A DNA stretch of 64,000 nucleotides, from NCBI RefSeq assembly GCF_024502345.1, contig NZ_JALDNN010000003.1. The stretch is one strand, 5' to 3'. The translations under genes were made by a program, and so were the position numbers. How positions within the stretch are numbered: position 1 is the stretch's first letter; each line of letters begins with the position of its first letter. Under the pieces are notes generated by a model. That model had not been told where the DNA came from, ran no database searches, and saw nothing but the letters and a program-made list of their open reading frames with translations. The stretch comes from Escherichia coli (GTDB taxonomy: Bacteria; Pseudomonadota; Gammaproteobacteria; Enterobacterales; Enterobacteriaceae). Shown piece after piece: positions 4,497 through 64,000 of the stretch.

Positions 4497-7346
4497 ATGG
4501 CCAGAAAACAATGCCAGGTCTGCGGCCAGCCCGCCACGGTGCGGGTGGAAGCCAATCTCAATGGTCGCCACAGCACCATGCTGTTGTGTGACGATCACTA
4601 TCGCCAACTGGCGCGCCAGCAAAAGCGCACCGTCTCGCCGCTGGAAGCCTTGTTTGGCTCGCGCAGCGGCTTGTTCGAAGACTTCCTCGGCAGCGACTTC
4701 TTCCGCATCGGTGACGATTCGCCGTCCATGGCGGCCGATACCGACGAGGTGGTCGATGCCTCGTTCGGCGAACCCGCCCCGGCCGGTACGGGCACTGCGC
4801 GCCGTCGCGGCAGTGGGCTCGCCAGCCGTATCAGCGAACAGTCCGAGGCCCTATTGCAGGAGGCCGCCCGACACGCTGCAGAGTTCGGGCGCGCCGAAGT
4901 CGATACCGAACACCTGCTGCTGGCGCTATCCGACAGCGACGTGGTGAAGACCATCCTGGGACAGTTCAAGATCAAGGTCGATGACCTCAAGCGACAGATC
5001 GAATCCGAAGCCAAGCGCGGCGAGAAGCCGTTCGAGGGCGAAGTCGGCGTGTCGCCCCGGGTCAAGGACGCGCTCAGCCGCGCTTTCGTGGCCTCCAACG
5101 AACTCGGCCACTCTTATGTCGGGCCGGAGCATTTCCTGATCGGGCTCGCTGAGGAAGGCGAAGGTTTGGCGGCCAACCTGCTGCGCCGTTACGGCCTCAC
5201 GCCGCAAGCGCTGCGCCAGCAGGTAAGCAAGGTGGTCGGCAAAGGGGCCGAGGATGGCCGCGCCGAGACGCCGACCAACACGCCCGAGCTGGATAAATAC
5301 TCGCGCGACCTCACCAAGATGGCGCGCGAGGGCAAACTCGATCCAGTCATCGGCCGTGCGCAGGAGATCGAGACCACCATCGAGGTGCTGGCCCGGCGCA
5401 AGAAAAACAACCCGGTGTTGATCGGTGAGCCCGGCGTCGGCAAGACCGCCATTGTCGAAGGGCTGGCGCAGCGCATGGTCGCCGGTGAAGTGCCCGAGAC
5501 GCTGCGCGACAAGCGTCTGGTCGAGCTCAACATCAACGCCATGGTGGCAGGCGCCAAGTATCGCGGCGAGTTCGAGGAGCGCGTGCAGAAGGTGCTCAAG
5601 GAAGTGACCGAGCACCAGGGCGAGATGATTCTCTTCATCGATGAAGTGCACACCATCGTCGGTGCAGGCCAGGGTGGCGGCGAAGGCGGGCTGGACGTGG
5701 CCAACGTGTTCAAGCCGATGATGGCGCGCGGCGAACTGAACCTGATCGGCGCCACCACGCTCAACGAGTATCAGAAGTACATCGAGAAGGACGCCGCGCT
5801 GGAGCGTCGTTTCCAGCCGGTGATGGTGCCCGAGCCGACGGTAGCGCAGACCATGATGATCCTGCGCGGCCTGCGCGACACCTTCGAGGCGCACCACAAG
5901 GTCAGCATCACCGAGGATGCGATCATCGCCGCCGCCGAGTTGTCGGACCGCTACATCACCGCGCGCTTTTTGCCTGACAAGGCCATCGACCTGCTTGACC
6001 AGGCGGCCGCACGCGTGAAGCTGTCGGCCACGGCTCGCCCGGTGGCGGTGCAGGAGCTGGAGTCCGAACTGCACCAGTTGCGGCGTGAGCAGGACTACAT
6101 GGCCTCGCGCAAGCAGTACGACAAGGCCGCCGAGCTGGGCAAGCGCATCGAGGCCAAGGAGACTGAACTCAAGCAGCTCGTCGAGGAATGGGAACGCGAG
6201 CGCGCCTCGGGCAGCGCCGAAGTCAAGGCCGAGCATGTCGCGCAGATCGTCTCGCGCCTGACCGGCATTCCGGTCAACGAGCTGACGGTGGAAGAACGCG
6301 AGAAGCTGCTGCATCTGGAGCAGCGGCTGCATGAGCGCCTGGTGGGCCAGGACGAAGCGGTGCGCGCGGTGGCCGATGCCGTGCGGTTGTCGCGCGCGGG
6401 CCTGCGCGAAGGCGACAAGCCGGTGGCGACTTTCCTGTTCCTTGGGCCGACCGGCGTGGGCAAGACCGAGCTCGCCAAGGCGCTGGCCGAGTCCATCTAT
6501 GGCGATGAAGGTGCGCTGCTGCGCATCGACATGTCCGAGTACGGGGAACGCCATGCCGTGGCACGCCTGGTGGGCGCGCCTCCGGGTTATGTGGGCTATG
6601 ACGAGGGCGGCCAGCTCACCGAGAAGGTGCGTCGCAAGCCCTACAGCGTGTTGCTGCTCGATGAGATCGAAAAAGCGCACCCCGACGTCTACAACATCCT
6701 GCTGCAGGTGTTCGACGACGGGCGGCTCACCGACGGCAAGGGCCGGGTGGTGGATTTCACCAATACCATCATCATCGCCACCTCGAACCTGGGCTCGGAC
6801 ATCATCCAGCGTCGGCTGAAGGCCGGTGGCGCCGCCGGCGAGGAATACGAGAAGACCAAGTCCGAGGTGATGGACGTGCTGCGCGGACACTTCCGCCCCG
6901 AGTTCATCAACCGCATCGACGAGATCATCGTCTTCCATGCGCTGGGCAAGGAGGAAATCCGCCATATCGTCGGCCTGCAGCTTGATCGTGTGGCCCGCAA
7001 CGCCGCCAGCCAGGGCGTGACGCTGACCTTCGATCAGACCTTGATCGACCACTTCGCGGAGGAAGGCTACAAGCCCGAGTTCGGCGCGCGTGAGCTCAAG
7101 CGGCTGATCCGCAGCGAGCTGGAAACCGCGCTGGCGCGCGAGATGCTGGGTGGCGGTATCGGCAAGGGTGATCACGCCAACGCCCGCTGGGACGACAAGG
7201 CCGAACGGGTGGTCTTCGAGCGCCAGGAGCCACCCGCGAAGTCGGCTGAGCCTGAAAAGCCCGATGCCGCGGACGTGGCCGAGGCACCGCCTGGCGACGC
7301 GAGCAAGCCTGCGCGCAAGAAGAAGTCAGCGGATGGCGAATCTTGA
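4497..7346 (+). CDS. clpK: ClpK/ClpG-type Clp ATPase disaggregase with N-terminal zinc-finger extension
   Basis: AAGGAG RBS; N-terminus [38 protein letters not shown] (Cys4 motif) followed by two AAA+ modules ([13 protein letters not shown]...; [19 protein letters not shown]...) as in ClpB/ClpK. Confidence 0.9.
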
Positions 7347-50183: not shown

Positions 50184-51611
50184 CTATGATGCCGCTTCAA
50201 ATTCTCCCTTGAGACGAGCCGCAACGGCGATCTCAATACGGCTTCGAAGCAAACTGGCCACGGCCGCAAATACGTCGACGATGACCGAATTGCCGAACTG
50301 GCGATAGGCCTGGGTATCAGAGACTGGAATGCGAAAAGTAACTTTTCCCGGTTGCTCGAATCCCATAAGGCGGGCACATTCTCGCGGGGTTAAACGGCGC
50401 GGGCGCCTTGCCATATTTACAGGATCATTAAAGTCCTTTTCGCCTATGCTGTGATCCCATCCACGGTCTAGCAAAATTTCAGAGCCATCACGATAGTACC
50501 GTGCGCTGAGTGTTCTGCAAACAACTGATTTATCAAGTGGATTTACCAGTCCGAAGCCAAATCCATTACCTTTTGCCTGGTGCTTTTTAGCGTAGTTATA
50601 AAGGTACTCCCAGAGCTTTGGAGAAAGGATGTAACGGCTATCGACCTCAGCGTCCAGCAGCTCCCCAAGGGTTGGCCGTCGTGAAGGATAAAGAGCCGAT
50701 ACACCACTTAACGAAAAGCCATCATGGAGCTTCAGATCGCGCCTGAATCCAACCAACACGATACGTTCCCGGTGCTGAGGCCTGAAGTTCTTACCGTCAA
50801 TTATTTTGGGGTCCTTTGATCCGTGAGCATCGCAGTCGGCAACATCGTAGCCAAGTTCATCAAGCGCTTTCATGATGATGCGGAACGTATTTCCCTTATC
50901 GTGGCTCTTCAGATTTTTTACGTTCTCAAGAACGAAAATGGCAGGCTGTTTGGCTCGGATGATCCGGGCGACATCAAAAAAAAGGGTCCCCTGGGTGTCG
51001 CATTCAAAGCCGTGTTTTCGGCCCAAAGAGTTCTTTTTGCTGACACCGGCAATACTGAACGGCTGGCATGGGAAACCGGCGAGCAAAACATCATGGTCAG
51101 GAATGGATGCAGCGATAGAAGCATACGCCTGGTCTTCCGACACATCGGGAAGATTGCTGAGTGTAATGTCCCGGATATCTGAGTTGAAATGGTGCTCGGT
51201 GTCTTCGCAGTACCAGTTTGCACTGTATGTCCGGCGGGAGAACTGATTCCATTCGCTTGTAAACACGCATTTCCCGCCAATGGCGTCAAAACCACTCCGG
51301 AGGCCACCGATCCCAGCAAACAAGTCAATAAAACGGAAAAATTTCTGGTCATAGTCTGCTGGGCGTGAGGGGAGCAACGATCGAAGATAATGATATTCTT
51401 CCTGGGTTATTCGACATTCATTAACTGAACCTTTGATCTGGCGAATAAGTGATGCCCTCGACCAGTCGCTGCCGGTTGCAGCATTAAGTTGCGCAGCCAA
51501 ATCTTTTACGTCATAGATACTTGCAACCTGAACCAGTAATTTATGGATAGAGGAATGTGTCTCATCATTTAGCAATGCAGTTATTGCAGGCTCATTTCTC
51601 GCGCTGTACAT
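50184..51611 (-). CDS. dcm: DNA (cytosine-5) methyltransferase, Dcm/M.EcoRII-like
   Basis: Motif [16 protein letters not shown], motif [13 protein letters not shown], motif VI ENVKNL, motif X QFGNSV; full-length collinearity with Dcm (475 aa); GGAG RBS. Confidence 0.9.
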
Positions 51612-51833
51612 CCTTACTCCGTGAAATGTGATTAATTTAGGTTCTCAGACTACCACGCGCAGAAAATTCAATTTTTCTTTAAAGCCCTTTATTTTCATCT
51701 CCTGAAATAAATTTTTTATCCACTTAAATTGCCTCCGTTAACGGAAATTTGCCCGGGTTCTAATTGGTACAATAAGCACTTCTAATCACACGACTAATTT
51801 GTTACTACAAACCATCTAATTCAGGGAGAATGT

Positions 51834-52349
51834 ATGACTCTGTTGAAAAAGTTACTTTTGCCGACATTAATTGTCCTTTTCCCGGCGGCAGTTCTGGCTG
51901 GTCAGTCTTCATTTGAAGCAAAAGTGGTAAAAATTATCGATGGGGACACCATTACCGCGCTCGACGGTCAGAATACAAGCATCAAAATCCGTATGTACGG
52001 TATTGATGCCCCCGAAAGTAAGCAGGCCTTTGGACAAAAGGCTAAACAAGCGTTGAGCTCCGCGATTGCTGCACAGAATATTACGGTAATAGACCACGGA
52101 CCTGATATTTACGGCAGGATGTTGGGGACTATTTGGCTTGATGGTTATGACATCAACGCTTCAATGGTAGACAGTGGTTATGCATGGGTATATCGGTTTG
52201 ACGGTAATCCCATCGTCCCAAACTATCTTAAATTCGAAGCTTCAGCTCAGAAAGCCGTTAAAGGTCTCTGGGTAGATCCTAATCCCGTTGCTCCTTGGGA
52301 GTGGCGCCAGCAAAACCAGAAACCTCAAAAGACGAAAAGCAGGGGGTGA
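51834..52349 (+). CDS. Secreted thermonuclease (staphylococcal-nuclease/SNase fold)
   Basis: Signal peptide MTLLKKLLLPTLIVLFPAAVLAG; SNase-like core (VVKIIDGDTI...IRMYGIDAPE...). Confidence 0.7.
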   Translation: MTLLKKLLLPTLIVLFPAAVLAGQSSFEAKVVKIIDGDTITALDGQNTSIKIRMYGIDAPESKQAFGQKAKQALSSAIAAQNITVIDHGPDIYGRMLGTIWLDGYDINASMVDSGYAWVYRFDGNPIVPNYLKFEASAQKAVKGLWVDPNPVAPWEWRQQNQKPQKTKSRG

Positions 52350-52354
52350 GCGCG

Positions 52355-53287
52355 ATGACAAGCCAGCATCCTTTACTGAAAATTGCACTTAATGGCGATG
52401 GACTTCTTTCGTGGCCAAATTCACCCGGACAGACTATGCGCTGCCCAACGTGTATGCGAGATGTTATTACGGGTCCGGATGGTGATTTAATACATCAAAT
52501 GGAAGAGGGCGCTAACCCCTGCACGCCATCTGTTGATGTTGTCATTTCAAAGGCGATCATTGAACTACTCAGCACGGGTGAGCGCCTCTATGTCAACCCA
52601 GTTAAGAACGCGAATAGAACACTGGCCCCATCGTTTATCTTTCTGCATAAAGACAAGCAACTTCGACCATTCATAAATACGGAATATCAACCAGCAGGTG
52701 CCACCTGGAGAAGTGATAAAGGGAACAGGCTTGGTTTTTTCTATATGGATGCGCGAGCGTCTAAAATTAATAAGGACCAGTTCGATTTTATTGCTGTAAT
52801 AGACCCATCTACTTTTCAAGCAGAATTTAAGACCTTATGGTCCATGTGTGAATTCGATAACCCCCTTGCCGCGTTACAGCACTTATTGGTTTCAGAGAAT
52901 ATGTCTTCAGTCTGGGTGAAATGGCCTGTTAAAAGCCTACAACCGAGGAAAGAAGCAGTGAAGGCCGATTACTGGTATGACTATTATTCACCTCACTACC
53001 CAGCGCAGCAGGCAGCTTGCACAGCAACAGTGATTGGACTGGAAGGAAATGTATCCGGGGAAACTATTTACATGCTCCAGATCGCTGTAGACCGGTCGAT
53101 AGTTGAGTACCAGCTTGTAAAATCGCTAGGGGTTATATTGCTATTGGATAATACGGGAAATTTGGTATCGGAGACGCGCCCACACTTTGATATAATCATC
53201 AAAGCTTGCATCTCGGGTGTCAGAGACTTTGTACGTCAAAATCCTCGAATGCGAAGTGTGGAGCATCAGATTACCAGTGCAATATGA
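52355..53287 (+). CDS. hypothetical protein (310 aa)
   Basis: Starts 6 nt after the nuclease stop; no motif recognised. Confidence 0.45.
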   Translation: MTSQHPLLKIALNGDGLLSWPNSPGQTMRCPTCMRDVITGPDGDLIHQMEEGANPCTPSVDVVISKAIIELLSTGERLYVNPVKNANRTLAPSFIFLHKDKQLRPFINTEYQPAGATWRSDKGNRLGFFYMDARASKINKDQFDFIAVIDPSTFQAEFKTLWSMCEFDNPLAALQHLLVSENMSSVWVKWPVKSLQPRKEAVKADYWYDYYSPHYPAQQAACTATVIGLEGNVSGETIYMLQIAVDRSIVEYQLVKSLGVILLLDNTGNLVSETRPHFDIIIKACISGVRDFVRQNPRMRSVEHQITSAI

Positions 53288-53380
53288 GGAAATGGATCAG
53301 CGACTAAATCTGTTGCTCGCCGTAAATACAAGTGCGCACCATAAAATAAAAACACTTTATAAATCAATGACTTTGTCAAA

Positions 53381-53403
53381 GCTAAGTAGAGATGTCCGGG
53401 GTG
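53381..53403 (+). repeat. Left copy of a 23-bp imperfect inverted repeat
   Basis: GCTAAGTAGAGATGTCCGGGGTG matches the reverse complement of 60508-60530 at 20/23 positions; second ATGTCC motif 23 bp inward. Confidence 0.45.
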
Positions 53404-53781
53404 GGGCAAAGTTCAAATGTCCTTTGATAATATTGAATTCCTGGATAAAAATCGCATCTTAACCTCTTCGTTTGAGTACCTTGTTGGGTTGACCCCGTAT
53501 TCGCTTTATTTGTAGTATTGGGCTGCTTTGAAGTGTTTCATGTTCAAACGCGACGTGTTCTGTAAGTTCTTCCTGACAACAGAGCCGACAATATATACAC
53601 ATCCGCTATGGAGAATCTGACAACCGCTATGCGTATTACGCCACCCTGAGTTTTTCCTTCCTCTGTCGTACTGAGCAAGCCTCAGCACGCACTCAATAAC
53701 ATCCCGTCTGCGGATGTGCTTTACCGTACGTAAAAATGTAGCCCTCCAGGGCTGACTGTATCTAAAAACTGAGAAATTACT

Positions 53782-55260
53782 ATGTTGCTGTCCTCGACGC
53801 GTAAGGACTGGCTGGGTAACGTCCGTGGTGACGTTCTGGCCGGTATTGTTGTCGCGCTCGCACTCATTCCAGAAGCGATCGCCTTTTCCATTATCGCCGG
53901 TGTTGATCCCCAGGTGGGCCTCTACTCGGCGTTCTGTATTCCTCTCGTTATGGCCTTCTTTGGCGGACGTCCGGCGATGATTTCGTCCTCCACCGGTGCA
54001 ATGGCTCTCCTGATGGTGACGCTGGTGAAAGATCATGGCTTACAGTATTTACTGGCTGCCTCCATACTGACCGGGGTATTCCAGCTGATAGCCGGATATC
54101 TGAAGCTTGGCGGGCTGATGCGTTTTGTTTCACGCTCAGTGGTCACGGGGTTTGTTAATGCACTGGCAATACTGATTTTTATGGCCCAGTTGCCTGAGCT
54201 GACCAATGTGACATGGCATGTTTATGCCATGACTGCGGCAGGGCTGGGGATCATCTATCTCTTCCCTTATATCAACAAAACCATTCCTTCACCGCTTGTG
54301 TGCATCGTGGTGCTGACTGGGATTGCCATGTGGCTGCATCTGGATGTGCGAACCGTCGGGGATATGGGGAAACTTCCCGACAGTCTGCCGGTCTTCCTGC
54401 TCCCGGACGTGCCTTTAAATCTTCAGACGCTGCTCATCATCCTGCCATATTCTGCGGGGCTTGCGGTGGTTGGCCTGCTTGAGTCGATGATGACCGCCAC
54501 TATCGTGGATGACATGACCGACACGCCAAGCGACAAAAACAGGGAGTGCAAAGCTCAGGGCATCGCGAACATCTGCACATCCTTTATCGGAGGAATGGCA
54601 GGCTGCGCGATGATTGGGCAATCTGTTATCAACGTAAAATCCGGTGGACGCGGACGACTTTCAACCCTCACGGCGGGCGTGGTGCTGCTTTGCCTGATTG
54701 TGTTCCTGCGCAACTGGGTCTCCCAAATTCCGATGGCAGCGCTGGTCGCGGTGATGATTATGGTTTCCATCGGGACATTCTCCTGGCGCTCCATTGCCAA
54801 CCTGCGGACACACCCCCTTTCAACCAGCGTGGTCATGCTTGCCACCGTAGCGGTTGTGGTGGCAACACATAATCTGGCCTTCGGTGTGCTGACCGGTGTA
54901 CTGATTGCTTCGCTCAATTTTGCCACTAAAGTATCCCGGTTCATGCGTGTAACCTCAGTTCTGGAGGGGACGAGCCGGACGTATACCGTCACCGGCCAGG
55001 TATTCTTTGCATCAGCAGACCGCTTTACGAGCCACTTTGATTTCCGTGAAGCGATTGAGAATGTGGTGATAGACGTTTCACATGCCCATTTCTGGGACAT
55101 CACGTCCGTCAGCGCCCTGGATAAGGTGGTCATTAAGTTCCGCAGAGAGGGCGCCGGGGTTGAAATACGTGGGATGAATGAAGCCACCCGCACCATCGTT
55201 GACCGGTTTGGTGTTCACGATAAACCTGAAGAAGTCGAAAAACTGATGGGCGGTCATTAA
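53782..55260 (+). CDS. SulP-family anion transporter with C-terminal STAS domain
   Basis: 492 aa, polytopic N-terminal domain and C-terminal STAS-like region. Confidence 0.8.
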
Positions 55261-55278
55261 CAGACTGGAGGGAAAACT

Positions 55279-56106
55279 ATGAATAATACTGTTACAGCTT
55301 GTGTGGACGGTTCACTTTCAACGCGGTCAGTGTGTGAATATGCGGCGTGGGCAGCCCGCACTTTGCAATCACAGCTAGCACTGTTGCACGTTATCGAAAA
55401 AGACAGCACCCCGGTAGTGTCAGACCTGACCGGCACTCTCGGCATAGACAGTCAGCAATTGCTGACCGATGAGCTGGTAGAAATTGAAGGGCAACGTAAT
55501 CGCCTGCTGATGGCCCAGGGGAAAGCAATACTGGAAAGTTGTGCTGAACTGCTTCAAAAACAGGGAAGCCCGGATGTGCTTTTGATGCAAAAACACGGTA
55601 CACCGGATGAAGTTCTGGCAGAGCTGAGCGACCTTCGTCTCATGGTGCTGGGGCGTCGGGGTAGCCAGCATCCGGTAGGCTCTCATCTGGAAAGCGTTAT
55701 TCGTCTGCAAAAGAAACCCCTACTGGTTGTTCCGGAGAACTACTCAGTGCCTTCCAGAGTCATGCTGGCTTATGATGGCAGTGAAGAAAGCAGGAGTAAC
55801 CTGGAACGTCTGACGATGAGTCCCTTACTCAGGGGGCTGGAGTGCCACCTTGTCATGGTAAACGGTAAGAAGGAAGAGCTGCTGACCGCACAGCAAATTT
55901 TACGTGACGCGGATATAGAAAACAGCACAACACATCTTACCGGGCAATCAGTCGGGGACGCGCTTATTCGTTACGCCGAGGAAAATGCTGTCGATCTGAT
56001 AGTGATGGGGGCCTACGGTCATTCCAGGTTGCGGCAGTTCTTTATCGGTAGTCATACCTCCGAAATGCTGCAAAAGACGCAACAACCGCTTCTTATCCTC
56101 CGTTAG
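55279..56106 (+). CDS. Universal stress protein, tandem UspA-domain type
   Basis: Two Usp-like halves, C-terminal half ending ...DLIVMGAYGHSRLRQFFIGSHTSEMLQKTQQPLLIL. Confidence 0.75.
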   Translation: MNNTVTACVDGSLSTRSVCEYAAWAARTLQSQLALLHVIEKDSTPVVSDLTGTLGIDSQQLLTDELVEIEGQRNRLLMAQGKAILESCAELLQKQGSPDVLLMQKHGTPDEVLAELSDLRLMVLGRRGSQHPVGSHLESVIRLQKKPLLVVPENYSVPSRVMLAYDGSEESRSNLERLTMSPLLRGLECHLVMVNGKKEELLTAQQILRDADIENSTTHLTGQSVGDALIRYAEENAVDLIVMGAYGHSRLRQFFIGSHTSEMLQKTQQPLLILR

Positions 56107-56127
56107 CACTGATTATCTTAAATAAAA

Positions 56128-56149
56128 AAGGGCGAGTTCTCTCGCCCTT
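56128..56149. terminator. Rho-independent terminator between convergent usp and arsC
   Basis: GGGCGAG-ttct-CTCGCCC stem flanked by an A-tract on the plus strand (T-tract for the minus-strand ars transcript). Confidence 0.6.
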
Positions 56150-56165
56150 CGTCACAAGAACACGT

Positions 56166-56591
56166 TTAGTTCAGCCGGTTACCTTTTTCATCAACTACCT
56201 TCTCACCGTCCTCTTTCGTGAACGCGCTTTTCTGCGCATCGGGAAGAATATCCAGCACGACTTCAGAAGGGCGGCATAGCCGGGTACCCAGCGGCGTTAC
56301 CACGATAGGGCGATTGATCAGAACAGGGTGCTGCAACATAAAATCGATTAACTGCTCGTCAGTAAAGCGGTCTTCCGCCAGCCCTAACGCTTCAAAAGGT
56401 TCGACATTCTTACGCAGCAGCGCTCGTACCGTGATCCCCATATCCGCAATGAGTTTTACCAGCTCAGCTCGTGATGGTGGGGTTTCAAGATAATGAATAA
56501 CGGTCGGCTCTGTACCGCTGTTGCGGATCATTTCAAGGGTATTGCGTGACGTGCCGCAGGCCGGGTTGTGATAAATGGTAATGTTGCTCAT
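56166..56591 (-). CDS. arsC: Arsenate reductase (glutaredoxin-coupled)
   Basis: MSNITIYHNPACGTSRNTLEMIRNSGTEPTVIHYLETPP... with catalytic Cys12. Confidence 0.95.
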   Translation of the reverse strand: MSNITIYHNPACGTSRNTLEMIRNSGTEPTVIHYLETPPSRAELVKLIADMGITVRALLRKNVEPFEALGLAEDRFTDEQLIDFMLQHPVLINRPIVVTPLGTRLCRPSEVVLDILPDAQKSAFTKEDGEKVVDEKGNRLN

Positions 56592-56603
56592 ATCAGTATC
56601 TCA

Positions 56604-57893
56604 TTACAAAGTGAAAGACAGACGAAGCGCCAGTGCTGCAAGCGTGACAAACAGCACGGGGATTGTCATGACAATGCCCACCCGGAAGTAATATCCCCAG
56701 GTAATTTTGATATTTTTCTGCGACAGAACGTGCAGCCACAGTAACGTTGCCAGACTGCCGATAGGGGTAATTTTTGGCCCCAGGTCGCTGCCGATGACGT
56801 TGGCGTAAATCATCGCTTCTTTGATAACACCGGTCGCAGTGCTGCCATCAATCGACAGCGCCCCGACCAGCACGGTCGGCATATTGTTCATCACTGATGA
56901 CAGGAAGGCCGTCAGGAAGCCCGTACCCAGCGTTGCCGCCCACAATCCCTGCTCTGCCAGCTGATTCAGCAAGGAAGAGAGATAGTGGGTCAGACCGGCA
57001 TTTCGTAAGCCGTAGACCACCAGGTACATCCCCAGCGAGAAGATAACGATTTGCCAGGGCGCACCACGCAGCACCTTACCGGTGTTAATGGCATGCCCTT
57101 TTTTCGCAACAGCAAACAGAAGCAATGCACCAGCGGCTGCGACCAAACTGACCGGTACGCCCAGCGGCTCCAGTCCGAAGAATCCCACCAGAAGCAACAC
57201 CAGAACCAGCCAGCCGGTTTTAAAGGTATTCACATCACGTATAGCGTCTTTCGGTTCTTTCAACAGAGAAACGTCGTAAACGGCGGGAATGTCCTTACGG
57301 AAAAACAGATGCAGCATCACCAGCGTAGCCGCAATCGCGGCCAGGTTAACCGGGACCATCACGGCGGCATATTCTGAGAAACCAAGCTTAAAGAAATCCG
57401 CCGAGACGATATTCACCAGGTTTGAGACAATCAGTGGCAGGCTTGCCGTGTCAGCGATAAACCCTGCGGCCATGATAAACGCTAAGGTTGCCCCCCGGCT
57501 GAATCCCAGCGCCAGCAGCATCGCGATAACGATAGGTGTCAGGATCAGTGCCGCACCGTCGTTGGCAAACAGTGCCGCAACCATCGCACCAAGCAGGACG
57601 ATCCAGGTGAAGAGCAGCCGCCCCCGGCCATTCCCCCAACGGGCAACGTGCAGCGCGGCCCATTCAAAGAAGCCGGATTCGTCGAGCAGAAGACTGATGA
57701 TGATCACGGCGATAAAGGTGGCGGTCGCATTCCACACTATCTGCCAGACCACCGGAATATCCCCCAGATGAACGACGCCAGTCAGCAATGCCAGAATTGC
57801 GCCCAGTGAGGCACTCCAGCCAATCCCCAGCCCTCTGGGTTGCCAGATAACCAGGACGAGCGTGAATAAAAAGATAGCACCAGCCAGTAACAT
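56604..57893 (-). CDS. arsB: Arsenite/antimonite efflux permease
   Basis: GGAG RBS before the second ATG; 429 aa polytopic membrane protein collinear with ArsB. Confidence 0.95.
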
Positions 57894-57938
57894 CAGAAAC
57901 TCCATTCACATTTGTTTATTCGGATATATATATCGCCA

Positions 57939-58259
57939 TCAGCAGGAGACAGATGCCACGCTACTGAGCTTGTTGCGTATGTTTTCTCGTTCACAGTTCC
58001 AGGCTGTATCAATAATACCCGCAGCCCATGCTGGCATGTGTGGCGACAGTCGGTAATGCACCCATTTTCCTTCGCGACGGTCGATGACCAGCTCGGCTTC
58101 ACGTAAAAGGGCCATATGGCGAGAAATTTTTGGCTGAGACTCTGCGGTTGCCGCACAGATGTCACAGACGCACATTTCACCGGACTCCCTGAGAAGCATC
58201 ACGATAGTTGAACGGGTCTCGTCGGCGAGCAGTTTAAAAAGCTGAACAGGCTGTAGCAT
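57939..58259 (-). CDS. arsR: ArsR/SmtB-family arsenite-responsive repressor
   Basis: MLQPVQLFKLLADETRSTIVMLLRESGEMCVCDICAATAESQPKISRHMALLREAELV... with the ELCVCD metalloid-binding motif. Confidence 0.9.
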   Translation of the reverse strand: MLQPVQLFKLLADETRSTIVMLLRESGEMCVCDICAATAESQPKISRHMALLREAELVIDRREGKWVHYRLSPHMPAWAAGIIDTAWNCERENIRNKLSSVASVSC

Positions 58260-58285
58260 GCTTAACCTCGTAAAAAAATAACAAT

Positions 58286-58305
58286 ACATATGGTATTTCA
58301 TATGT
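58286..58305. promoter_or_regulatory. Candidate ArsR operator in the arsR-arsH divergent region
   Basis: Imperfect palindrome ACATATGgtatttCATATGT between divergent arsR and arsH. Confidence 0.35.
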
Positions 58306-58345
58306 GATAACTTTTAAAGCATAGCTTATGAAATGGAGATTTTTT

Positions 58346-59050
58346 ATGACCGACTTACCAGCAATCGAACCGGCTTATTTTGATGATGCGCTTGCCAGCA
58401 AACTTACGGGCAACAACGAAACCATGCCGCGAATTCTCATCCTGTACGGTTCAGTACGAGAGCGGTCCTACAGTCGTTTTGCAGCGGAAGAGGCCGGGCG
58501 GTTGCTGGCAAAGATGGGGGCTGAGGTGAAAATATTTAACCCATCCGGTCTGCCGTTACCCGATGATGCGCCCGAAAGTCACCCCAAAGTGCTTGAACTC
58601 CGCGAGCTGGTCAGGTGGTGTGACGGAATGGTCTGGAGTTCTCCGGAAAGACATGGCGCCATGAGCTCGGTGATGAAGGCCCAGATTGACTGGATACCCC
58701 TGAGTGAAGGTGCTGTTCGTCCTTCCCAGGGTAAAACGCTGGCCGTCATGCAGGTTTGTGGTGGTTCACAGTCGTTTAACACGGTCAATCAGATGCGGAT
58801 ACTTGGCCGCTGGATGCGGATGTTCACCATCCCCAATCAGTCGTCAGTGCCAAAGGCATGGCAGGAATTTGATGATGAAGGGCGCATGAAACCCTCACCC
58901 TGGTATGACAGGATTGTCGACGTTACCGAAGAGTTGTTCAAAATGACGTTACTCCTGAAAGGGCACACAGCCTACCTGTCCGACCGCTACAGCGAAAGGA
59001 AAGAGAGTCATCAGGAGCTCGCGGCACGGGTCAATCAGGCCAAAATCTGA
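58346..59050 (+). CDS. arsH: ArsH, NADPH-dependent FMN reductase
   Basis: GGAG RBS; ...[27 protein letters not shown]... flavodoxin-like fold. Confidence 0.85.
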
Positions 59051-59082
59051 CAGCCAGGCATGCCCGGATGGATTACCGGGCT

Positions 59083-60486
59083 TTAAATCGGTTTCTTCCC
59101 AAATATCTCTTCAGAGCGTGACTGAAGTTTCACCAGGGCATTGAACATATCGTCCTGATCCAGGGAACGCTGGGATTTCTTCGTCGTGGGAGCTTTACGC
59201 CTGCGAGAAGGGCCGTCTCCGGATGGTACGGATTGCGACCGGTTATTATCCCGCTCGGCCTGGACCAGCTGCGCCATTTCCAGGGCCCGCCCCAGACGTT
59301 TGTTATCCACAATGGCCCCCTGATCGATTTCAGAAAGCTTGTCATAGGTGGAGTAGGGAAGTGATACGCCATTAAGCCGGAGCTCTTTATGTCCATCCGG
59401 GTAATGCCAGACATCGATGTATTTACCAATCGCCCGACGACTGAATTCGCTGTCTTCAATCAGATAAAGGACTTTGTCGTATTGCACTGTGAGTGATTTC
59501 GACACTTTACGAGCTTCACGCCAGTTAAATACCATATCAAGATCGTCATCGACATCCAGTTCCCGATGAACATCAAACTCCTGGCGAGGCGCTTTTGCGA
59601 AACGACGGTTGTAATCGTTCATGAACTCTTCGGCAAATGCGTTCGCAGCTTCCATGGAACTGATGCCCTGGAGCCTGAGCTCCTTGACCAGTCGGTCCTG
59701 AAGCGTCAGGTGCGCCCGTTCAACGCGGCCTTTGGCAGCACTGGTTTCTGCACAAATGGTCTGAATGTTCAGTTCATGCATCGCACGGCCAAACTGGGTA
59801 TCGCCGTCGCCGCCGGTTGCATTTTTATTGTTGATCCTGAATACGCTGGCTTTGTCGCTGTACAGCGCAAGCGGTTTGCCATGTTTTTCAATATAGCCCC
59901 GGGTCGCTTCAAAATAGGTGAAAGTAGACTCAGATTTCACGAAAAGAAGCTGCATTAAACGACTGGTTGCGTCATCAACGTAAACCAGTGCCGTACACTT
60001 AGGTCCCCGATTTTCAAACCAGTGGTGGTCGCAGCCGTCGATTTGTATGAGTTCACCGGCACAGGCACGGCGGTAACGAGGTTGCTGAATTTTTGGCGCA
60101 CGTTGCTTACGTGGGACCCACAGACTGGCCTGAGTCATCAGCTTACGGACGGTTTCTTTGGAAAGATGAACACCGTGCACCTCAGACAGTTTTTCACAGG
60201 CCAGCGTCGGACCGAAATCGTTATAGCGTTCGCGAATAATGTTCAGCGCGTATGCGGCCAGTCCCTGAGGCAACTGGTTGTTACTGGATTTACCACGACG
60301 GCGGCTGGTCATGCCAATCGGACCATCTTCACGATAACGCGCAAGCAGACGACGGCACTGACGGTCGGAGATACCAAGCCGCTGAGCTGCCATTTGTGTT
60401 GTCAGACGCCGGTCGATGACATCCTGAATGATTTTGAGTCGGTTAACTTCATCCAATGTGAAAAACTCCGCTGCGAGAGCCGTCAT
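59083..60486 (-). CDS. DDE transposase with N-terminal HTH and integrase-core domain (IS481/ISNCY-like)
   Basis: 467 aa; HTH (MAAQRLGISDRQCRRLLARYRE); integrase-core residues (...LIQIDGCDHHWF...ALYSDKASVF...TSAAKGRVERAH...); AAGGA RBS. Confidence 0.7.
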   Translation of the reverse strand: MTALAAEFFTLDEVNRLKIIQDVIDRRLTTQMAAQRLGISDRQCRRLLARYREDGPIGMTSRRRGKSSNNQLPQGLAAYALNIIRERYNDFGPTLACEKLSEVHGVHLSKETVRKLMTQASLWVPRKQRAPKIQQPRYRRACAGELIQIDGCDHHWFENRGPKCTALVYVDDATSRLMQLLFVKSESTFTYFEATRGYIEKHGKPLALYSDKASVFRINNKNATGGDGDTQFGRAMHELNIQTICAETSAAKGRVERAHLTLQDRLVKELRLQGISSMEAANAFAEEFMNDYNRRFAKAPRQEFDVHRELDVDDDLDMVFNWREARKVSKSLTVQYDKVLYLIEDSEFSRRAIGKYIDVWHYPDGHKELRLNGVSLPYSTYDKLSEIDQGAIVDNKRLGRALEMAQLVQAERDNNRSQSVPSGDGPSRRRKAPTTKKSQRSLDQDDMFNALVKLQSRSEEIFGKKPI

Positions 60487-60507
60487 GGTAATCCTTACTT
60501 GATTATA

Positions 60508-60530
60508 CACGCCGGACATCTTAACTTAGC
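60508..60530 (-). repeat. Right copy of the 23-bp imperfect inverted repeat, 21 bp upstream of the transposase start
   Basis: CACGCCGGACATCTTAACTTAGC is the reverse complement of the 53381-53403 repeat (20/23); additional GGACAT motif at 60538-60543. Confidence 0.45.
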
Positions 60531-60780
60531 CATTATCGGACATTACAACTTTGCTACTACAGACTTTGTCAAAGCAAGTTTAAAATGTCACCTCTTTGTG
60601 CAAGATAGAAAGGGCACTTTCAGCCTATGTAATCATATTAATGTGACTGCTGCGTTATCCCACTCAACCAATTAATAAAGCAAAAGTTAAATATGAAAGA
60701 CTGGAATAAAAATATAACGAAAACATCTTAATATGGAAATATCTGTGTCAACGGGATCTTTAGTTATTGAATATCTGGTT

Positions 60781-61587
60781 CTAAATAGGTTCTACATTCA
60801 ACGGGAAGGGAAACCAAATATCTATATGTTTTTTATAAATACCATTACGTGGCAAACAACAATCTGCATATTTTTTTAAAGAATCTCCACATGGACAAAT
60901 ATTTTCTGGCGATAATACTCCATCATGTTCTTTCGCCTTAAATCTCCAGGTCGTAATATTGAAAATTTGATGTGGGGATTGTATGTATTTGACAACACTA
61001 ATTAAAGTTGAATAGTTATAATGATCACCATCATTGGAGAAAAAAACACTACATTTGTTAACGGGATTACTAACTATGTCATAAGTAATTAATTCAAAAT
61101 CGATCACTTCATCAAAGCAAAGAACTCCATTATAAAGTTTATTTTTAACATGACCACAATCATTAATAAAACTACGGGTTGTATTACATACTGAACATTT
61201 CACTTCTTTTATTATTTCACGAGAACTACCGAAGATTTTATATGGGAATAACGCCTGCCAATTACATACCATTCTCGCTAAGAAGTTAACACCATAGAAA
61301 TTAACCTCAGGCAGAAACTCATTATTTTCTTTAATATGTATTAAATCTATTTCTATCCTTTCAAGTTCTACCCATGCTTCATAAAAATCACCTCTTGTAA
61401 GTAAATTAATGACTTGAATATATTTTAAATGGGCTAGTAAAATTGTTTTGTATAAAAACAATCTGTTTGATTCATTATTCAAGCTCAAGGATTGAGCTTT
61501 TTTTAACTCAGCATTAAGATAATCAAGAATAGCACTATCTTCTTGAGTAATACACATCCAACGCTTTAACTTTTCGTGAATATTCAT
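60781..61587 (-). CDS. hypothetical protein with C-terminal SEC-C-like metal-binding motif
   Basis: 268 aa, about 30% GC; C-terminus CPCGDSLKKYADCC and an internal CSVCNTTRSFINDCGH cluster. Confidence 0.55.
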   Translation of the reverse strand: MNIHEKLKRWMCITQEDSAILDYLNAELKKAQSLSLNNESNRLFLYKTILLAHLKYIQVINLLTRGDFYEAWVELERIEIDLIHIKENNEFLPEVNFYGVNFLARMVCNWQALFPYKIFGSSREIIKEVKCSVCNTTRSFINDCGHVKNKLYNGVLCFDEVIDFELITYDIVSNPVNKCSVFFSNDGDHYNYSTLISVVKYIQSPHQIFNITTWRFKAKEHDGVLSPENICPCGDSLKKYADCCLPRNGIYKKHIDIWFPFPLNVEPI

Positions 61588-61604
61588 AATATCTATATAG
61601 ATTT

Positions 61605-62051
61605 TTATTTGATTTTGTTAATTACTTTTAAAACATCGTCTACTTTTCCAGAAACAGTGTATTTCACATGTTTTCCTGATTTATTTTTTTTAATTATAGA
61701 GACTTTAACGTCTATATCTCTAGTTCCAAAGTTATCAATTTTTTTCTGAATATAATTTGAAACAAGATTTACTAAAAAAGGTATCATTACTGATGTGGCA
61801 AAGAAAGTGCCTAACGCTAACGTTATACTGTTTAATTGCAGGTACGAAACACCATTAGAATCTCCGTACACTTTAACATTAGAATGTGATTGCTTGGTGA
61901 ACTGGAAAAAATCCAGTGCATTACCTCCAGTAATTTTTGAACTATCAAAAACGATCGCAATCTCATCATCTTGAGGTTCATATGAAGAAATGATTTTTAC
62001 CTCTTCATCTTCATCACTCATTTCACTCAAAGTAATGGGGTTCATTCTCAA
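61605..62051 (-). CDS. hypothetical small protein with one predicted transmembrane helix
   Basis: 148 aa; acidic N-terminus, hydrophobic segment ITLALGTFFATSVMIPFLVNLV, basic C-terminus. Confidence 0.5.
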   Translation of the reverse strand: MRMNPITLSEMSDEDEEVKIISSYEPQDDEIAIVFDSSKITGGNALDFFQFTKQSHSNVKVYGDSNGVSYLQLNSITLALGTFFATSVMIPFLVNLVSNYIQKKIDNFGTRDIDVKVSIIKKNKSGKHVKYTVSGKVDDVLKVINKIK

Positions 62052-62197
62052 CTCCTTGTTTTATATTTTTACATTCAAATTTTACTATACGACTGGTTAA
62101 TTGCTCCTGTCCAACACACACCAGAGTTCATATGCTTAGCATACAAGGGACCAATGCCAGTAGCGACAGGCTAGTGTGTCAAAAAACCACATGAAGA

Positions 62198-63559
62198 TCA
62201 ATCTCCTGCGGAAAATTTGGCCGCAATTAGTTTCATTGTCCTTTCCATGCCTTGATAAACTGTCGCATCTGTAATGTTTAACCTTGCGAGTTCCTTAAGT
62301 ATTCTAGCTTTGTTTCTGATCACTATTTTTTCTACTTTAAACTCTTGCATAGCATCATCAGGGTTTGAAACTAAATCGGGATAAACAGCATTATTCCCAA
62401 ATAATAAGAATGCACCTGACTGTGATGACATCCTTTCATTATTATTTCTTCCTTTAACGAAAATTAACCTTTCCAAATCTGATGGTATAATTACATCTTT
62501 AAAATAAGGTTTTTCATCTTTAATGTAATGTATGAGTTTTTGACAAGCTTCAGTTTTATTGAAAGCCTCCTTGTCCATTTTACAATCCAGCTGATCTTTC
62601 AGTGTTTGACTTAGCATTGATATATTTGATATGCAACTTACTGTATCAGAGTCAAAGAATTTTATACGATCCCTTTTTGTTTTGAAAATAATAACATGTC
62701 CATCAACCTCATTTGTATTTTCATTATTACTAATGTCGCAACAAGCGAAATACAGAGCGATTAGTGGATTTGATGTTATATCCAACAAACGAGTTGGTAG
62801 TCCGTAGTGTTGCATCCTTACTAACTTGTCTAGCATTGTTTTATCATCAACAAACTCAGTTGGCCTTGCTGTTAGGGCTTCACGGACTAAATTTGATTCA
62901 CTGTGCAAATGCTTGAAGTTACCTTTTTTGTTTTTCCTGAAAACTGATGGAGCCAACTCGTAAGATACATCAGAATGTCCACGATAAAATATTTCTGCAT
63001 CTTCTTCATGATCTTGTTCTAAAACACGCGCCATGAAACTTTGAACATTATCTATTATTGGGTAGTTATCAACTTCATCAGGAAGTGCTTCAGTAGGAGG
63101 AAGTGGTGTACTTCTTGTCGTTATATTTAGAAGTGCTAATGTTTGATTTAAATCACGTGCTTTTATTCCCCAGTGAGTCCGTTTCAGCCCATATGCACCT
63201 AATTCTAAAGCTGTTTGATATAACTCTTTGTTTATCACTACGACATCATCTTGTGAGTGAGTGATTCTGAAATCAAACTCAACATTTTTGTTAACTGTTC
63301 GTAGATTTGAAATTACACCAAGTCGCAAAGTAATGTATTCAACATTGTCTCGGGAATAAAGTTCTGACATAAAAAGCGTAGGTAATTTCTCAATATAAGA
63401 TAATGCTTTATCATTCAAAGGCGTTAACTTCAACCGGATGTCATCAGAGGTGCCTTCTAACATACGTGATATAGGAAAATCACAACTCCCACTAACCCGT
63501 TCATACATGGGCCAATGTTCAAAATAGTCAGGTTCTCCGCCCATAATTAGATTAAACAT
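62198..63559 (-). CDS. FRG-domain protein (453 aa)
   Basis: FRG signature IFYRGHSDVSYELAPSVFR followed by HYGLPTRLLDITSNPLIALYFAC; flanking N- and C-terminal regions unrecognised; AAGGA RBS. Confidence 0.65.
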   Translation of the reverse strand: MFNLIMGGEPDYFEHWPMYERVSGSCDFPISRMLEGTSDDIRLKLTPLNDKALSYIEKLPTLFMSELYSRDNVEYITLRLGVISNLRTVNKNVEFDFRITHSQDDVVVINKELYQTALELGAYGLKRTHWGIKARDLNQTLALLNITTRSTPLPPTEALPDEVDNYPIIDNVQSFMARVLEQDHEEDAEIFYRGHSDVSYELAPSVFRKNKKGNFKHLHSESNLVREALTARPTEFVDDKTMLDKLVRMQHYGLPTRLLDITSNPLIALYFACCDISNNENTNEVDGHVIIFKTKRDRIKFFDSDTVSCISNISMLSQTLKDQLDCKMDKEAFNKTEACQKLIHYIKDEKPYFKDVIIPSDLERLIFVKGRNNNERMSSQSGAFLLFGNNAVYPDLVSNPDDAMQEFKVEKIVIRNKARILKELARLNITDATVYQGMERTMKLIAAKFSAGD

Positions 63560-63572
63560 TAAAACTAAATCC

Positions 63573-64000
63573 TTATATTTTACTTAATGAATTATTTACA
63601 ATCCAATCAATTGCGCCAGAGGTGCGAATCCAAGGCTTTATATTATGATTCACATAATAAATGGCTTCATCCATTCCACCTAACGTGATATATCCACTGT
63701 TAGACTTGATCTGTAATCTGCACTTCGATAACAAGCCGGGGATGTGTCTATTAGAATCAATCGCAGCTTTAGCGATATCATCGGCATCCGGGGATGACTG
63801 TCGGTAGGCGAGTAGGGCGCGTGTATACTGAAAAAACGAACGCATATCCCCAGGATAATCGTCCAGTAGCAAGGCCAGATCATCCACCATTTCAAGCTCA
63901 AGGTAATAGTTCGCTAATAAATGACGAATCCCCTGGTTATCGTTCGGGTTGAGCTTCAGCATTTCGCGGCTATGAGCCATAGCCGGATAAAAATTACCAG
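63573..64000 (-). CDS. hypothetical protein, probably 5'-incomplete at the window edge
   Basis: Frame open from the window end; first ATG at 63980 lacks a convincing RBS; stop 13 bp before the FRG gene start. Confidence 0.4.
   Translation of the reverse strand, partial: GNFYPAMAHSREMLKLNPNDNQGIRHLLANYYLELEMVDDLALLLDDYPGDMRSFFQYTRALLAYRQSSPDADDIAKAAIDSNRHIPGLLSKCRLQIKSNSGYITLGGMDEAIYYVNHNIKPWIRTSGAIDWIVNNSLSKI

Follow-up and report, generated by a model that had tools for sequence, protein, structure and literature searches.

Do the sulP, usp and ars genes that lie beside a DDE transposase gene in a stretch of Escherichia coli DNA form with it a mobile unit of their own, or are they plasmid backbone next to an ordinary insertion sequence (IS)? 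The stretch in question, called the window hereafter, comprises 64,000 nucleotides of contig NZ_JALDNN010000003.1 (assembly GCF_024502345.1), and a preliminary description of it had placed a transposon-like unit with this cargo at 53369-60575. The repeats pointed out there do delimit a whole mobile unit, but its termini are at 53374 and 60561, and the element measures 7,188 bp. We consider it very probable that this is a unit transposon of the IS1202 family, ISAjo2/ISAba32 subgroup, with ISKpn21 as its nearest named relative.

Copies of the Unit, Empty Sites and Exact Ends

The ends were located by comparing the junctions of the window copy with those of six other loci (L001 to L006). Homology among the copies always starts with TGTCAAAGC (window 53374) and stops with CTACTACA (window 60561), which gives an element spanning 53374-60561 with ends 5'-TGT...ACA-3'. 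Six copies, that of the window and five others, are exactly 7,188 bp long, the others being 99.2-99.9% identical; the window copy differs at 5 positions from that of R478 and at 6, 6, 53 and 54 positions from the remaining full-length ones. The copy in pWS3294A_133 (L002), a plasmid that is not replicon-typed, has a 1.68-kb internal deletion. Short direct repeats flank all of them: GACTT in the window, CACTT in an E. coli plasmid (L001), CCCTT in pWS3294A_133, ACTTA in the IncHI2 plasmids pFF2-1h-mcr-9 (L003), R478 (L004) and pSTm-A54650 (L006), and TTTATA in K. michiganensis p53828CZ_VIM (L005). The duplication is therefore of 5 bp in four contexts and of 6 bp in one. The flanks of different copies are unrelated past 32 bp, and the five differing but matching duplications argue against the descent of all filled sites from a single event.

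Sites without the unit were sought with a query in which the 500-bp left flank of the R478 copy, ending in ACTTA, was joined to the first 500 bp past the right-hand ACTTA. This query was matched over all its 1,000 bp in 16 IncHI2 plasmids, in 15 of them at 100% identity and in one at 99.9%; the empty site of pSJO-60984 reads ...gaatcaata ACTTA agtgcgcataa cgagga ttatgtaagat.... As the empty site holds a single ACTTA, the 7,188 bp plus one ACTTA constitute a discrete insertion. The repeats are not a product of chance either, because the same ends recur in many records at the same internal length. In PLSDB, 433 records hold at least 80% of the unit used as query. The exact left junction of the window together with the ars unit was found in no PLSDB record, and in the PLSDB plasmids with a window-type backbone that spot is occupied by other members of the family.

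The preliminary description had proposed to look for the same unit at other sites and for empty ones, and had regarded its proposal as lost if the unit did not recur with the same termini or if the transposase belonged to an IS whose ends lie elsewhere. The search yielded 7,188-bp copies in different plasmid backbones, with their own matching duplications, and 16 IncHI2 plasmids with the exact empty site; copies with the same termini thus exist, and the ends of the transposase's family are precisely these.

The 14-bp Direct Repeat and the Target Duplication

A direct repeat of 14 bp had also been reported at the two sides of the unit. The sequence GACTTTGTCAAAGC is indeed exact at 53369-53382 and 60562-60575, its sole other near-match in the window having 2 mismatches, but the target duplication is limited to the 5 bp GACTT. 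The 14-bp repeat is this duplication followed by a 9-bp terminus, TGTCAAAGC, which is common to the unit and to the element next to it. In R478 and L001, which have no neighbour in between, the repeat is of 5 bp only, and the extra 9 bp are seen only where the TGTCAAAGC terminus of another element abuts, as in the window, L006 and L005; in L006 the counterpart of the 14-bp repeat is ACTTATGTCAAAGC. We give next to no credit to the idea that all 14 bp are a true target duplication, by which the unit would belong to the IS1202 subgroups with long duplications (16-28 bp). The exactness of the repeat over 14 bp in the window and the existence of long duplications in other subgroups (PMC10132070) speak for it, but the 5-bp repeats of R478 and L001, the restriction of the extra 9 bp to places beside another TGTCAAAGC terminus, and the 5-bp duplication given by the empty site have already refuted it.

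Organization of the Ends

The terminal repeats, 53374-53397 and the reverse complement of 60538-60561, are identical at 17 of 24 positions when aligned from TGT. Each end holds an outer motif of around 17 bp within the 24-bp repeat and a second copy of it around 24 bp further inward, and in the same alignment the inner copies of the two ends match at 14 of 17 positions. The degenerate 17-mer GCWAAGTNNNRATGTCC has four zero-mismatch sites in the window, two per element end; at up to 2 mismatches no extra sites appear in the window, the mean in shuffled sequence being 1.4. The multi-site ends that had been suggested from a second ATGTCC motif at both ends are therefore present, with this motif at 53417-53422 and 60538-60543, 24-25 bp from the first. 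The inverted repeat of 23 bp described earlier was likewise recovered: the sequence at 53381-53403 (GCTAAGTAGAGATGTCCGGGGTG) is identical at 20 of 23 positions to the reverse complement of 60508-60530 (GCTAAGTTAAGATGTCCGGCGTG), and this inverted copy stops 21 bp short of the transposase ATG at 60486 on the minus strand. What had to be abandoned is its interpretation as the inverted repeat of the element, since it pairs sites that do not correspond, the outer one at the left with the inner one at the right.

The left outer copy of the motif is closest to the right inner copy (20/23), and the left inner copy is closest to the right outer one (15/17). In related elements, too, the transposase-proximal outer copy is the odd one and retains TAATGTC. 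Judging from the motif sequences, this unequal ordering of motif types at the two ends may underlie a fixed orientation of insertion. By analogy with the description of the family in PMC10132070, the transposase would bind the four motifs.

Transposase and Family Placement

The IS1202 family was set out in 2022-23 (PMC10132070, by Harmer, Pong & Hall, and bioRxiv 10.1101/2022.12.17.520857, by Siguier et al.). Membership was judged here in part by the presence of one DDE transposase of around 390-510 aa related to TnpAjo2 or to the ISKpn21 transposase. The terminal repeats of the family have 15-25 matches across 22-29 bp (PMC10132070). In the ISAjo2/ISAba32 subgroup the ends are TGT/ACA with imperfect terminal repeats of 24-26 bp and a second internal site, duplications are of 3-6 bp, and insertion is oriented and takes place 5 bp from the XerC arm of a Xer site (PMC10132070; 10.1101/2022.12.17.520857), taken here as 5-6 bp with the transposase-proximal end towards that arm; the DDE transposase has Q, and not K/R, seven residues after E (PMC10132070). 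The unit shows the length and relationship of the transposase, the DDE plus Q signature, the TGT/ACA repeats, the internal sites, a duplication within 3-6 bp and, in the R478, L001 and L002 copies, the oriented, Xer-adjacent insertion.

The transposase of the unit is 100% identical to that of the R478 copy and 76.6% identical to the annotated ISKpn21 transposase. Residues D150, D211, E256 and Q263 (Q at E+7) are invariant in an alignment with four relatives, and Pfam recognizes only N-terminal HTH domains in the protein. The TGT/ACA ends, the 17/24 terminal repeat and the second internal site are common to three related elements. An IS-sized form of 2,194 bp, with the same ends and a transposase 84% identical, was found in Raoultella planticola ATCC 33531 (L020 1888-4081), where it is flanked by a GTGCA duplication and stands in tandem with another copy. 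A derivative of 1,019 bp in Xenorhabdus hominickii (L018, and L019 at 5136-6154), present in loci from two contigs, keeps both ends and a CCTAT duplication and has its transposase gene deleted. At L016, where a transposase 96% identical has different neighbouring genes, the left end was not found, and the locus has no bearing on an exchange of cargo.

The transposase of the unit presumably catalyses its movement, which by analogy with ISKpn21 would proceed by the copy-out/paste-in route reported for that element, via a circle in which 5 bp join the ends. What is new is the size of the unit and its six-gene cargo; the behaviour itself is already published for the ISAjo2/ISAba32 subgroup, and the mechanism is unsurprising.

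Insertion Beside Xer Sites

In R478, L001 and L002 the right end of the unit is followed by 5 bp and then by AGTGCGCATAA-N6-TTATGT(A/T)A(G/A)AT, the three dif-like cores being AGTGCGCATAA CGAGGA TTATGTAAGAT, AGTGCGCTTAA TCATTG TTATGTAAAAT and AGTGCGCATAA CAAAGA TTATGTTAAAT. In three contexts, therefore, 5 bp separate the transposase-proximal end from the XerC arm of a dif-like site, and the 28-bp Xer site of the IncHI2 plasmids is AGTGCGCATAACGAGGATTATGTAAGAT. A scan for the proximal terminus with one genome per species gave 11 loci, from genera that include Buttiauxella, Phytobacter, Raoultella, Pluralibacter, Xenorhabdus, Pectobacterium, Cupriavidus and Noviherbaspirillum, and in most of them a site ending in TTATGTTAAAT follows after 5 bp. 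By analogy with what is published for the family, XerC or the Xer site would direct the targeting.

The left flank of the unit in the window is an IncHI1A-type backbone. At the same spot, the IncHI1A plasmid of Citrobacter sp. CRE-46 (L008) reads AAATCAAT GACTT (2.8-kb element) GACTT AGTGCGCATAA GATGGA TTATGTTAAAT, and GACTT is therefore the 5 bp beside the XerC arm of the site in the window-type backbone. Because the element next to the unit is 5.3 kb long, the Xer site of the window is predicted around 1.9 kb past position 64000, beyond that element, and the sequence past the window end is predicted to read ...GGTTCTAACA GACTT AGTGCGCATAA-N6-TTATGTTAAAT.

Three genes of the left flank (50184-53287), for a DNA cytosine methyltransferase, a thermonuclease-family protein and a hypothetical protein, keep their order in IncHI2, IncHI1A and IncHI1B records, and the last 32 bp before the insertion can still be aligned between IncHI1-type and IncHI2 backbones. 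In Table 8 of PMC10132070, the sequence TTGTAACAGCA AAGTTG TTATGTCCGCT contains TGTAACAGCAAAGTTGTTATGTCC, which is identical at 21 of 24 positions to the proximal end of the unit, TGTAGTAGCAAAGTTGTAATGTCC. Going by such sequences, some of the 'degenerate dif-like' ISKpn65 targets in that paper are probably the ends of neighbouring family members in tandem.

A Second Element and Tandem Arrays

The element that follows the unit is cut by the end of the window, and its complete form was found in pSTm-A54650 (L006, 22226-27545), where it measures 5.3 kb and carries four AT-rich passenger genes and an 'ISLad2 family' transposase, 49% identical to that of the ars unit. Its ends, TGTCAAAGCAAGTTTAAAATGTCAC and TGTTAGAACCATTTAGTAATGTCAC, are cognate, and in L006 it has ACTTA at both sides and then the Xer site. 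No inverted repeat directly follows its transposase gene, which places the cargo inside the element. One of the proteins encoded there (62198-63559 in the window, with an FRG domain) matches the PADLOC candidate defence family PDC-S15 with 331 bits. Other members of the family occupy equivalent positions. The 2.8-kb element of L008 (9501-12266), with GACTT flanks and abutting the Xer site, contains a Shedu nuclease gene (SduA, 382 bits), and a plasmid of E. coli 0H24 (L009) has, at the same backbone position as the window, a member with three hypothetical genes; the transposases of these two elements are 72-73% identical to that of the ars unit.

Tandem arrays with common 5-bp junctions were described by Siguier et al. 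(10.1101/2022.12.17.520857), and in the ISAjo2/ISAba32 subgroup the same 5 bp appear throughout the array and the newest copy is the Xer-proximal one (PMC10132070; 10.1101/2022.12.17.520857). The array of L005 consists of the ars unit, the neighbour, ISKpn21 and the Xer site, in this order, with TTTATA at all four junctions. For the window, we propose that the ars unit would have inserted first, at the Xer-site locus of a backbone of IncHI1 type and with duplication of GACTT, and that a second family member with candidate defence genes would then have landed between the unit and the Xer site, duplicating GACTT again. This second insertion would have set a TGTCAAAGC terminus beside GACTT, creating the apparent direct repeat of 14 bp. 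The order of arrival is proposed because, by the rule of the family, newcomers land next to the Xer site.

In L002 (3101-3198), a truncated transposase-proximal end lies head-to-tail with the left end of the internally deleted copy, with CCCTT between them; the other side of the truncated end is cut by IS3, and the whole is a remnant of a tandem pair. The junction between right end, CCCTT and left end is thus a genomic tandem with a truncated copy, and not a circle.

Read outward, the distal terminus TGTCAAAGC is GCTTTGACA, with a perfect TTGACA at the tip (minus strand, 53374-53382 and 60567-60575), and this tip is kept in the ars unit, the neighbour element, ISKpn21 and the Shedu element. 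In the window the tip of the neighbour lies 5 bp from the transposase end of the ars unit, an arrangement that resembles a circle junction, and the nearest -10-like hexamer, TGTAAT, is 19 bp past the outward TTGACA, across the 5-bp junction. A junction promoter formed by these two hexamers was considered and is not relied on. A terminator scan at the transposase end found nothing.

Genes of the Unit

The unit has seven genes, one for the transposase and six identified passenger genes. As shown in Table 1, they are enclosed by the two ends described above.

Table 1. Features of the unit and of its immediate surroundings in the window.
Feature	Position	Strand	Remarks
Left target-site duplication, GACTT	53369..53373		Same 5 bp after the right end
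IRR, transposase-distal terminal inverted repeat with the outer motif copy	53374..53397	+	TGTCAAAGCTAAGTAGAGATGTCC; starts 5'-TGT
Inner motif copy, IRR end	53406..53422	+	GCAAAGTTCAAATGTCC; putative transposase-binding site, from sequence only
sulP, SulP-family anion transporter, 492 aa	53782..55260	+	TIGR00815, 275 bits, below the 380-bit cutoff
usp, universal stress protein, 275 aa	55279..56106	+	PGAP name in identical copies; NCBIfam match weak
arsC, glutaredoxin-dependent arsenate reductase	56166..56591	-	NF007456, 298 bits, above cutoff
arsB, arsenite efflux transporter	56604..57893	-	TIGR00935, 740 bits; open reading frame (ORF) reaches 57905
arsR, ArsR/SmtB repressor	57939..58259	-	NF007528, 197 bits; ORF reaches 58301
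arsH, divergent from arsRBC	58346..59050	+	TIGR02690, 378 bits; ORF opens at 58328
Transposase, 467 aa, very probably IS1202 family, ISAjo2/ISAba32 subgroup	59083..60486	-	NF033594 ISNCY_2, 513 bits, cutoff 250
Inner motif copy, IRL end	60514..60530	-	GCTAAGTTAAGATGTCC; arm paired with 53381-53403 in the preliminary description
IRL, transposase-proximal terminal inverted repeat	60538..60561	-	Reverse complement TGTAGTAGCAAAGTTGTAATGTCC; plus strand ends ...ACA at 60561
Right target-site duplication, GACTT	60562..60566		Directly outside IRL
Second IS1202-family cargo element, outside the unit, cut by the window end	60567..64000	-	IRR TGTCAAAGCAAGTTTAAAATGTCAC

The sulP product is named SulP family inorganic anion transporter by PGAP in every copy, and the start of arsB is that of PGAP, with coordinates mapped from L006. 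The stop codons of arsH (59050) and of the transposase gene (59083) are separated by only 32 bp, a gap too short for an IS end, and no repeat was found in it, in agreement with the earlier statement that no second repeat exists on the other side of the transposase gene.

The ars genes presumably confer resistance; an IncHI2 plasmid with arsBCHR, possibly but not necessarily on this exact unit, increased the arsenate minimum inhibitory concentration ten-fold in transconjugants (PMC5073282). The ars segment is found at 99% identity or more in 438 plasmids, a number close to that of the records with most of the unit (433); below this level there is a sharp drop, with 8 plasmid records in the 95-99% band. 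The sulP-usp segment (53577-56112) is also the cargo, 95-96% identical, of a Tn3-family transposon (tnpA-tnpR-sulP-usp) carried by many E. coli plasmids and one chromosome (L010, L011), with IS5075/IS4321 annotated alongside. As sulP-usp travels in that transposon too, the cargo of the unit is a mosaic.

Alternative Explanations

A simple IS of 1.5-2.3 kb beside fixed ars backbone, with the left-hand repeat as a solo relic or a product of chance, draws some support from the 2,194-bp form with the same ends in R. planticola and from papers on IncHI2 plasmids that give the ars locus as backbone, one of them adding an 'orf1404' (1,404 bp), which by its length is taken to be the transposase gene of the ars unit. 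Nevertheless, no inverted repeat exists in the 32-bp gap between the arsH and transposase stops, the 16 empty IncHI2 plasmids lack the whole 7,188 bp and retain a single ACTTA, and full-length copies in further backbones have matching duplications of their own, so that we count this explanation as already refuted and extremely unlikely to return. Hardly better placed, and still very unlikely, is the view of the unit as a dif/xrs module, like the pdif modules of Acinetobacter, that owes its movement to XerCD recombination instead of to its transposase. Its constant position beside a dif-like site would fit, but the Xer-like core is found on the right side only in the other copies and is absent from the window, the TGT/ACA inverted repeats and the 5-bp duplications that vary with the site are not products of Xer recombination, and the empty site has its single Xer site intact and the 5 bp only once. 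A composite transposon flanked by IS copies was also discarded, as only one transposase gene is present and nothing but a 50-bp end stands at the left.

More weight, although it is still an improbable origin, can be given to the fusion of two tandem family members that has since moved as one unit. An older element would have provided the cargo and the left end, and a deletion would have joined it to an IS providing the transposase and the right end. Tandem arrays of the family at one Xer site are common, all distal termini begin TGTCAA(A/G)GC, so that ends could be borrowed, and the cargo is mosaic, with sulP-usp shared with a Tn3-family transposon. On the other hand, both left motif copies carry GCWAAGT...ATGTCC, the motif of the unit's own right end, and neither the GCTCA.T of ISKpn21 and the Shedu element nor the ...ATGTCAC of the neighbour, which makes the two ends look cognate; the 2,194-bp form of R. 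planticola has the same pair of ends.

Several points weigh against a unit transposon of the IS1202 family as proposed here. Listed members of the family measure 1.3-2.5 kb and have at most one passenger ORF, of unknown function (PMC10132070; 10.1101/2022.12.17.520857), whereas the unit, with 7,188 bp and six passengers, is around three times the size of the largest (2.5 kb); we take this range as typical of the listed members and not as defining. The PDB sequence search with the transposase gave no match, and its AlphaFold model from 5 sequences (pLDDT 49.9) was too poor to confirm a TnsB-like fold, with its two HTH domains, RNase H, beta-barrel and C-terminal domain. No Xer site was detected at up to 3 mismatches within the 64-kb window, and the scan for a sigma-70 promoter with 16-18 bp spacing found none at the transposase end. 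The position of the ars unit, distal to the neighbour in three of three arrays, fits a sequential arrival without proving it. Finally, transposition itself is deduced from comparisons between sequences.

Comparison with Known Systems

Like the unit, ISKpn21 (2,278 bp, a 'transporter IS') has a 467-aa transposase and TGT/ACA ends, duplicates 5 bp, inserts in one orientation at a distance of 5 bp from the XerC arm of dif-like sites, and forms tandem arrays with common 5 bp. It differs in having one passenger ORF of unknown function, in contrast with the six identified genes and 7,188 bp of the unit, and in its motif, GCTCAAT in place of GCWAAGT. The amino acid identity of 76.6% presumably makes the unit a separate element from ISKpn21 under the IS naming threshold. 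A published insertion of ISKpn21 (MN661402) likewise has GACTT next to a Xer site (PMC10132070). ISAjo2 and the other pdif-hunting IS of Acinetobacter share with the unit the two sites per end, the DDE plus Q at E+7 and the insertion 5 bp from the XerC arm, but they are cargo-free IS of 1.5 kb in Acinetobacter dif modules (PMC10132070), whereas the unit carries a resistance operon and is found in enterobacterial plasmids, of IncHI type and others, next to a single Xer site.

The likeness to Tn7 and Tn7-like transposons extends to the TGT/ACA ends, several transposase sites per end, the 5-bp duplication, the carriage of cargo, the site-specific and oriented insertion, and the tandem pile-up at the attachment site, and the transposase of the IS1202 family has been modelled on TnsB (PMC10132070). 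However, none of the seven genes of the unit encodes TnsA, TnsC, TnsD/TniQ, an AAA+ regulator or another accessory transposition protein, and its target is a Xer site instead of glmS, comM and similar sites. The backbone of the AbaR islands of Acinetobacter, Tn6019, has a cargo trio of ars genes, uspA and a sulfate permease gene (sup), although it is Tn7-like, with five tni genes, and targets comM; we keep it as a lead and not as support.

One preprint labels the IncHI ars operon as Tn2501/Tn2502, and mentions only four differences between the ars copies of R478 and pNDM-CIT, 'suggesting recent acquisition'. We did not adopt this label, as both the ends that bound the unit and its transposase are of IS1202 type. 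Within 53374-60561 neither a Tn3-family TnpA, a protein of about 1,000 aa, nor a resolvase was found, 38-bp repeats not having been searched for. Tn2502, from the Yersinia plasmid pYV and described in 1997, reportedly carries arsH with arsRBC; outside the ars unit, ars DNA at least 95% identical is rare.

Implications for Plasmids and for the Family

A literature search, incomplete in coverage, returned no name for the unit and no paper that treats it as a transposon. The ars genes of IncHI2 plasmids, which are routinely listed as backbone, sit on a discrete transposon that is apparently still mobile. The plasmids concerned are R478 and carriers of mcr-9, IMP and VIM, and with the unit in 433 PLSDB plasmids the finding changes the reading of arsenic co-selection and of how ars genes move between plasmid groups. 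It also means that the family, presented in 2023 as one of small IS, includes a multi-gene transposon whose defined target is short (28 bp), and this bears on the suggested use of IS1202-family elements for site-directed gene insertion.

The ars/sulP/usp unit (7.2 kb), the PDC-S15 neighbour (5.3 kb) and the Shedu carrier (2.8 kb) could be examples of something more general. We see an even chance that the Xer-hunting elements of the IS1202 family are a class of cargo transposons with a single transposase, set in tandem at the dimer-resolution-type site of large plasmids, IncHI among them, and at the dif site of chromosomes. If so, genes for metal resistance and phage defence would form small islands in these stacks and be taken for backbone in annotation. 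Each insertion parts the XerC arm from the flank of that side, and might in this way alter the resolution of plasmid multimers.

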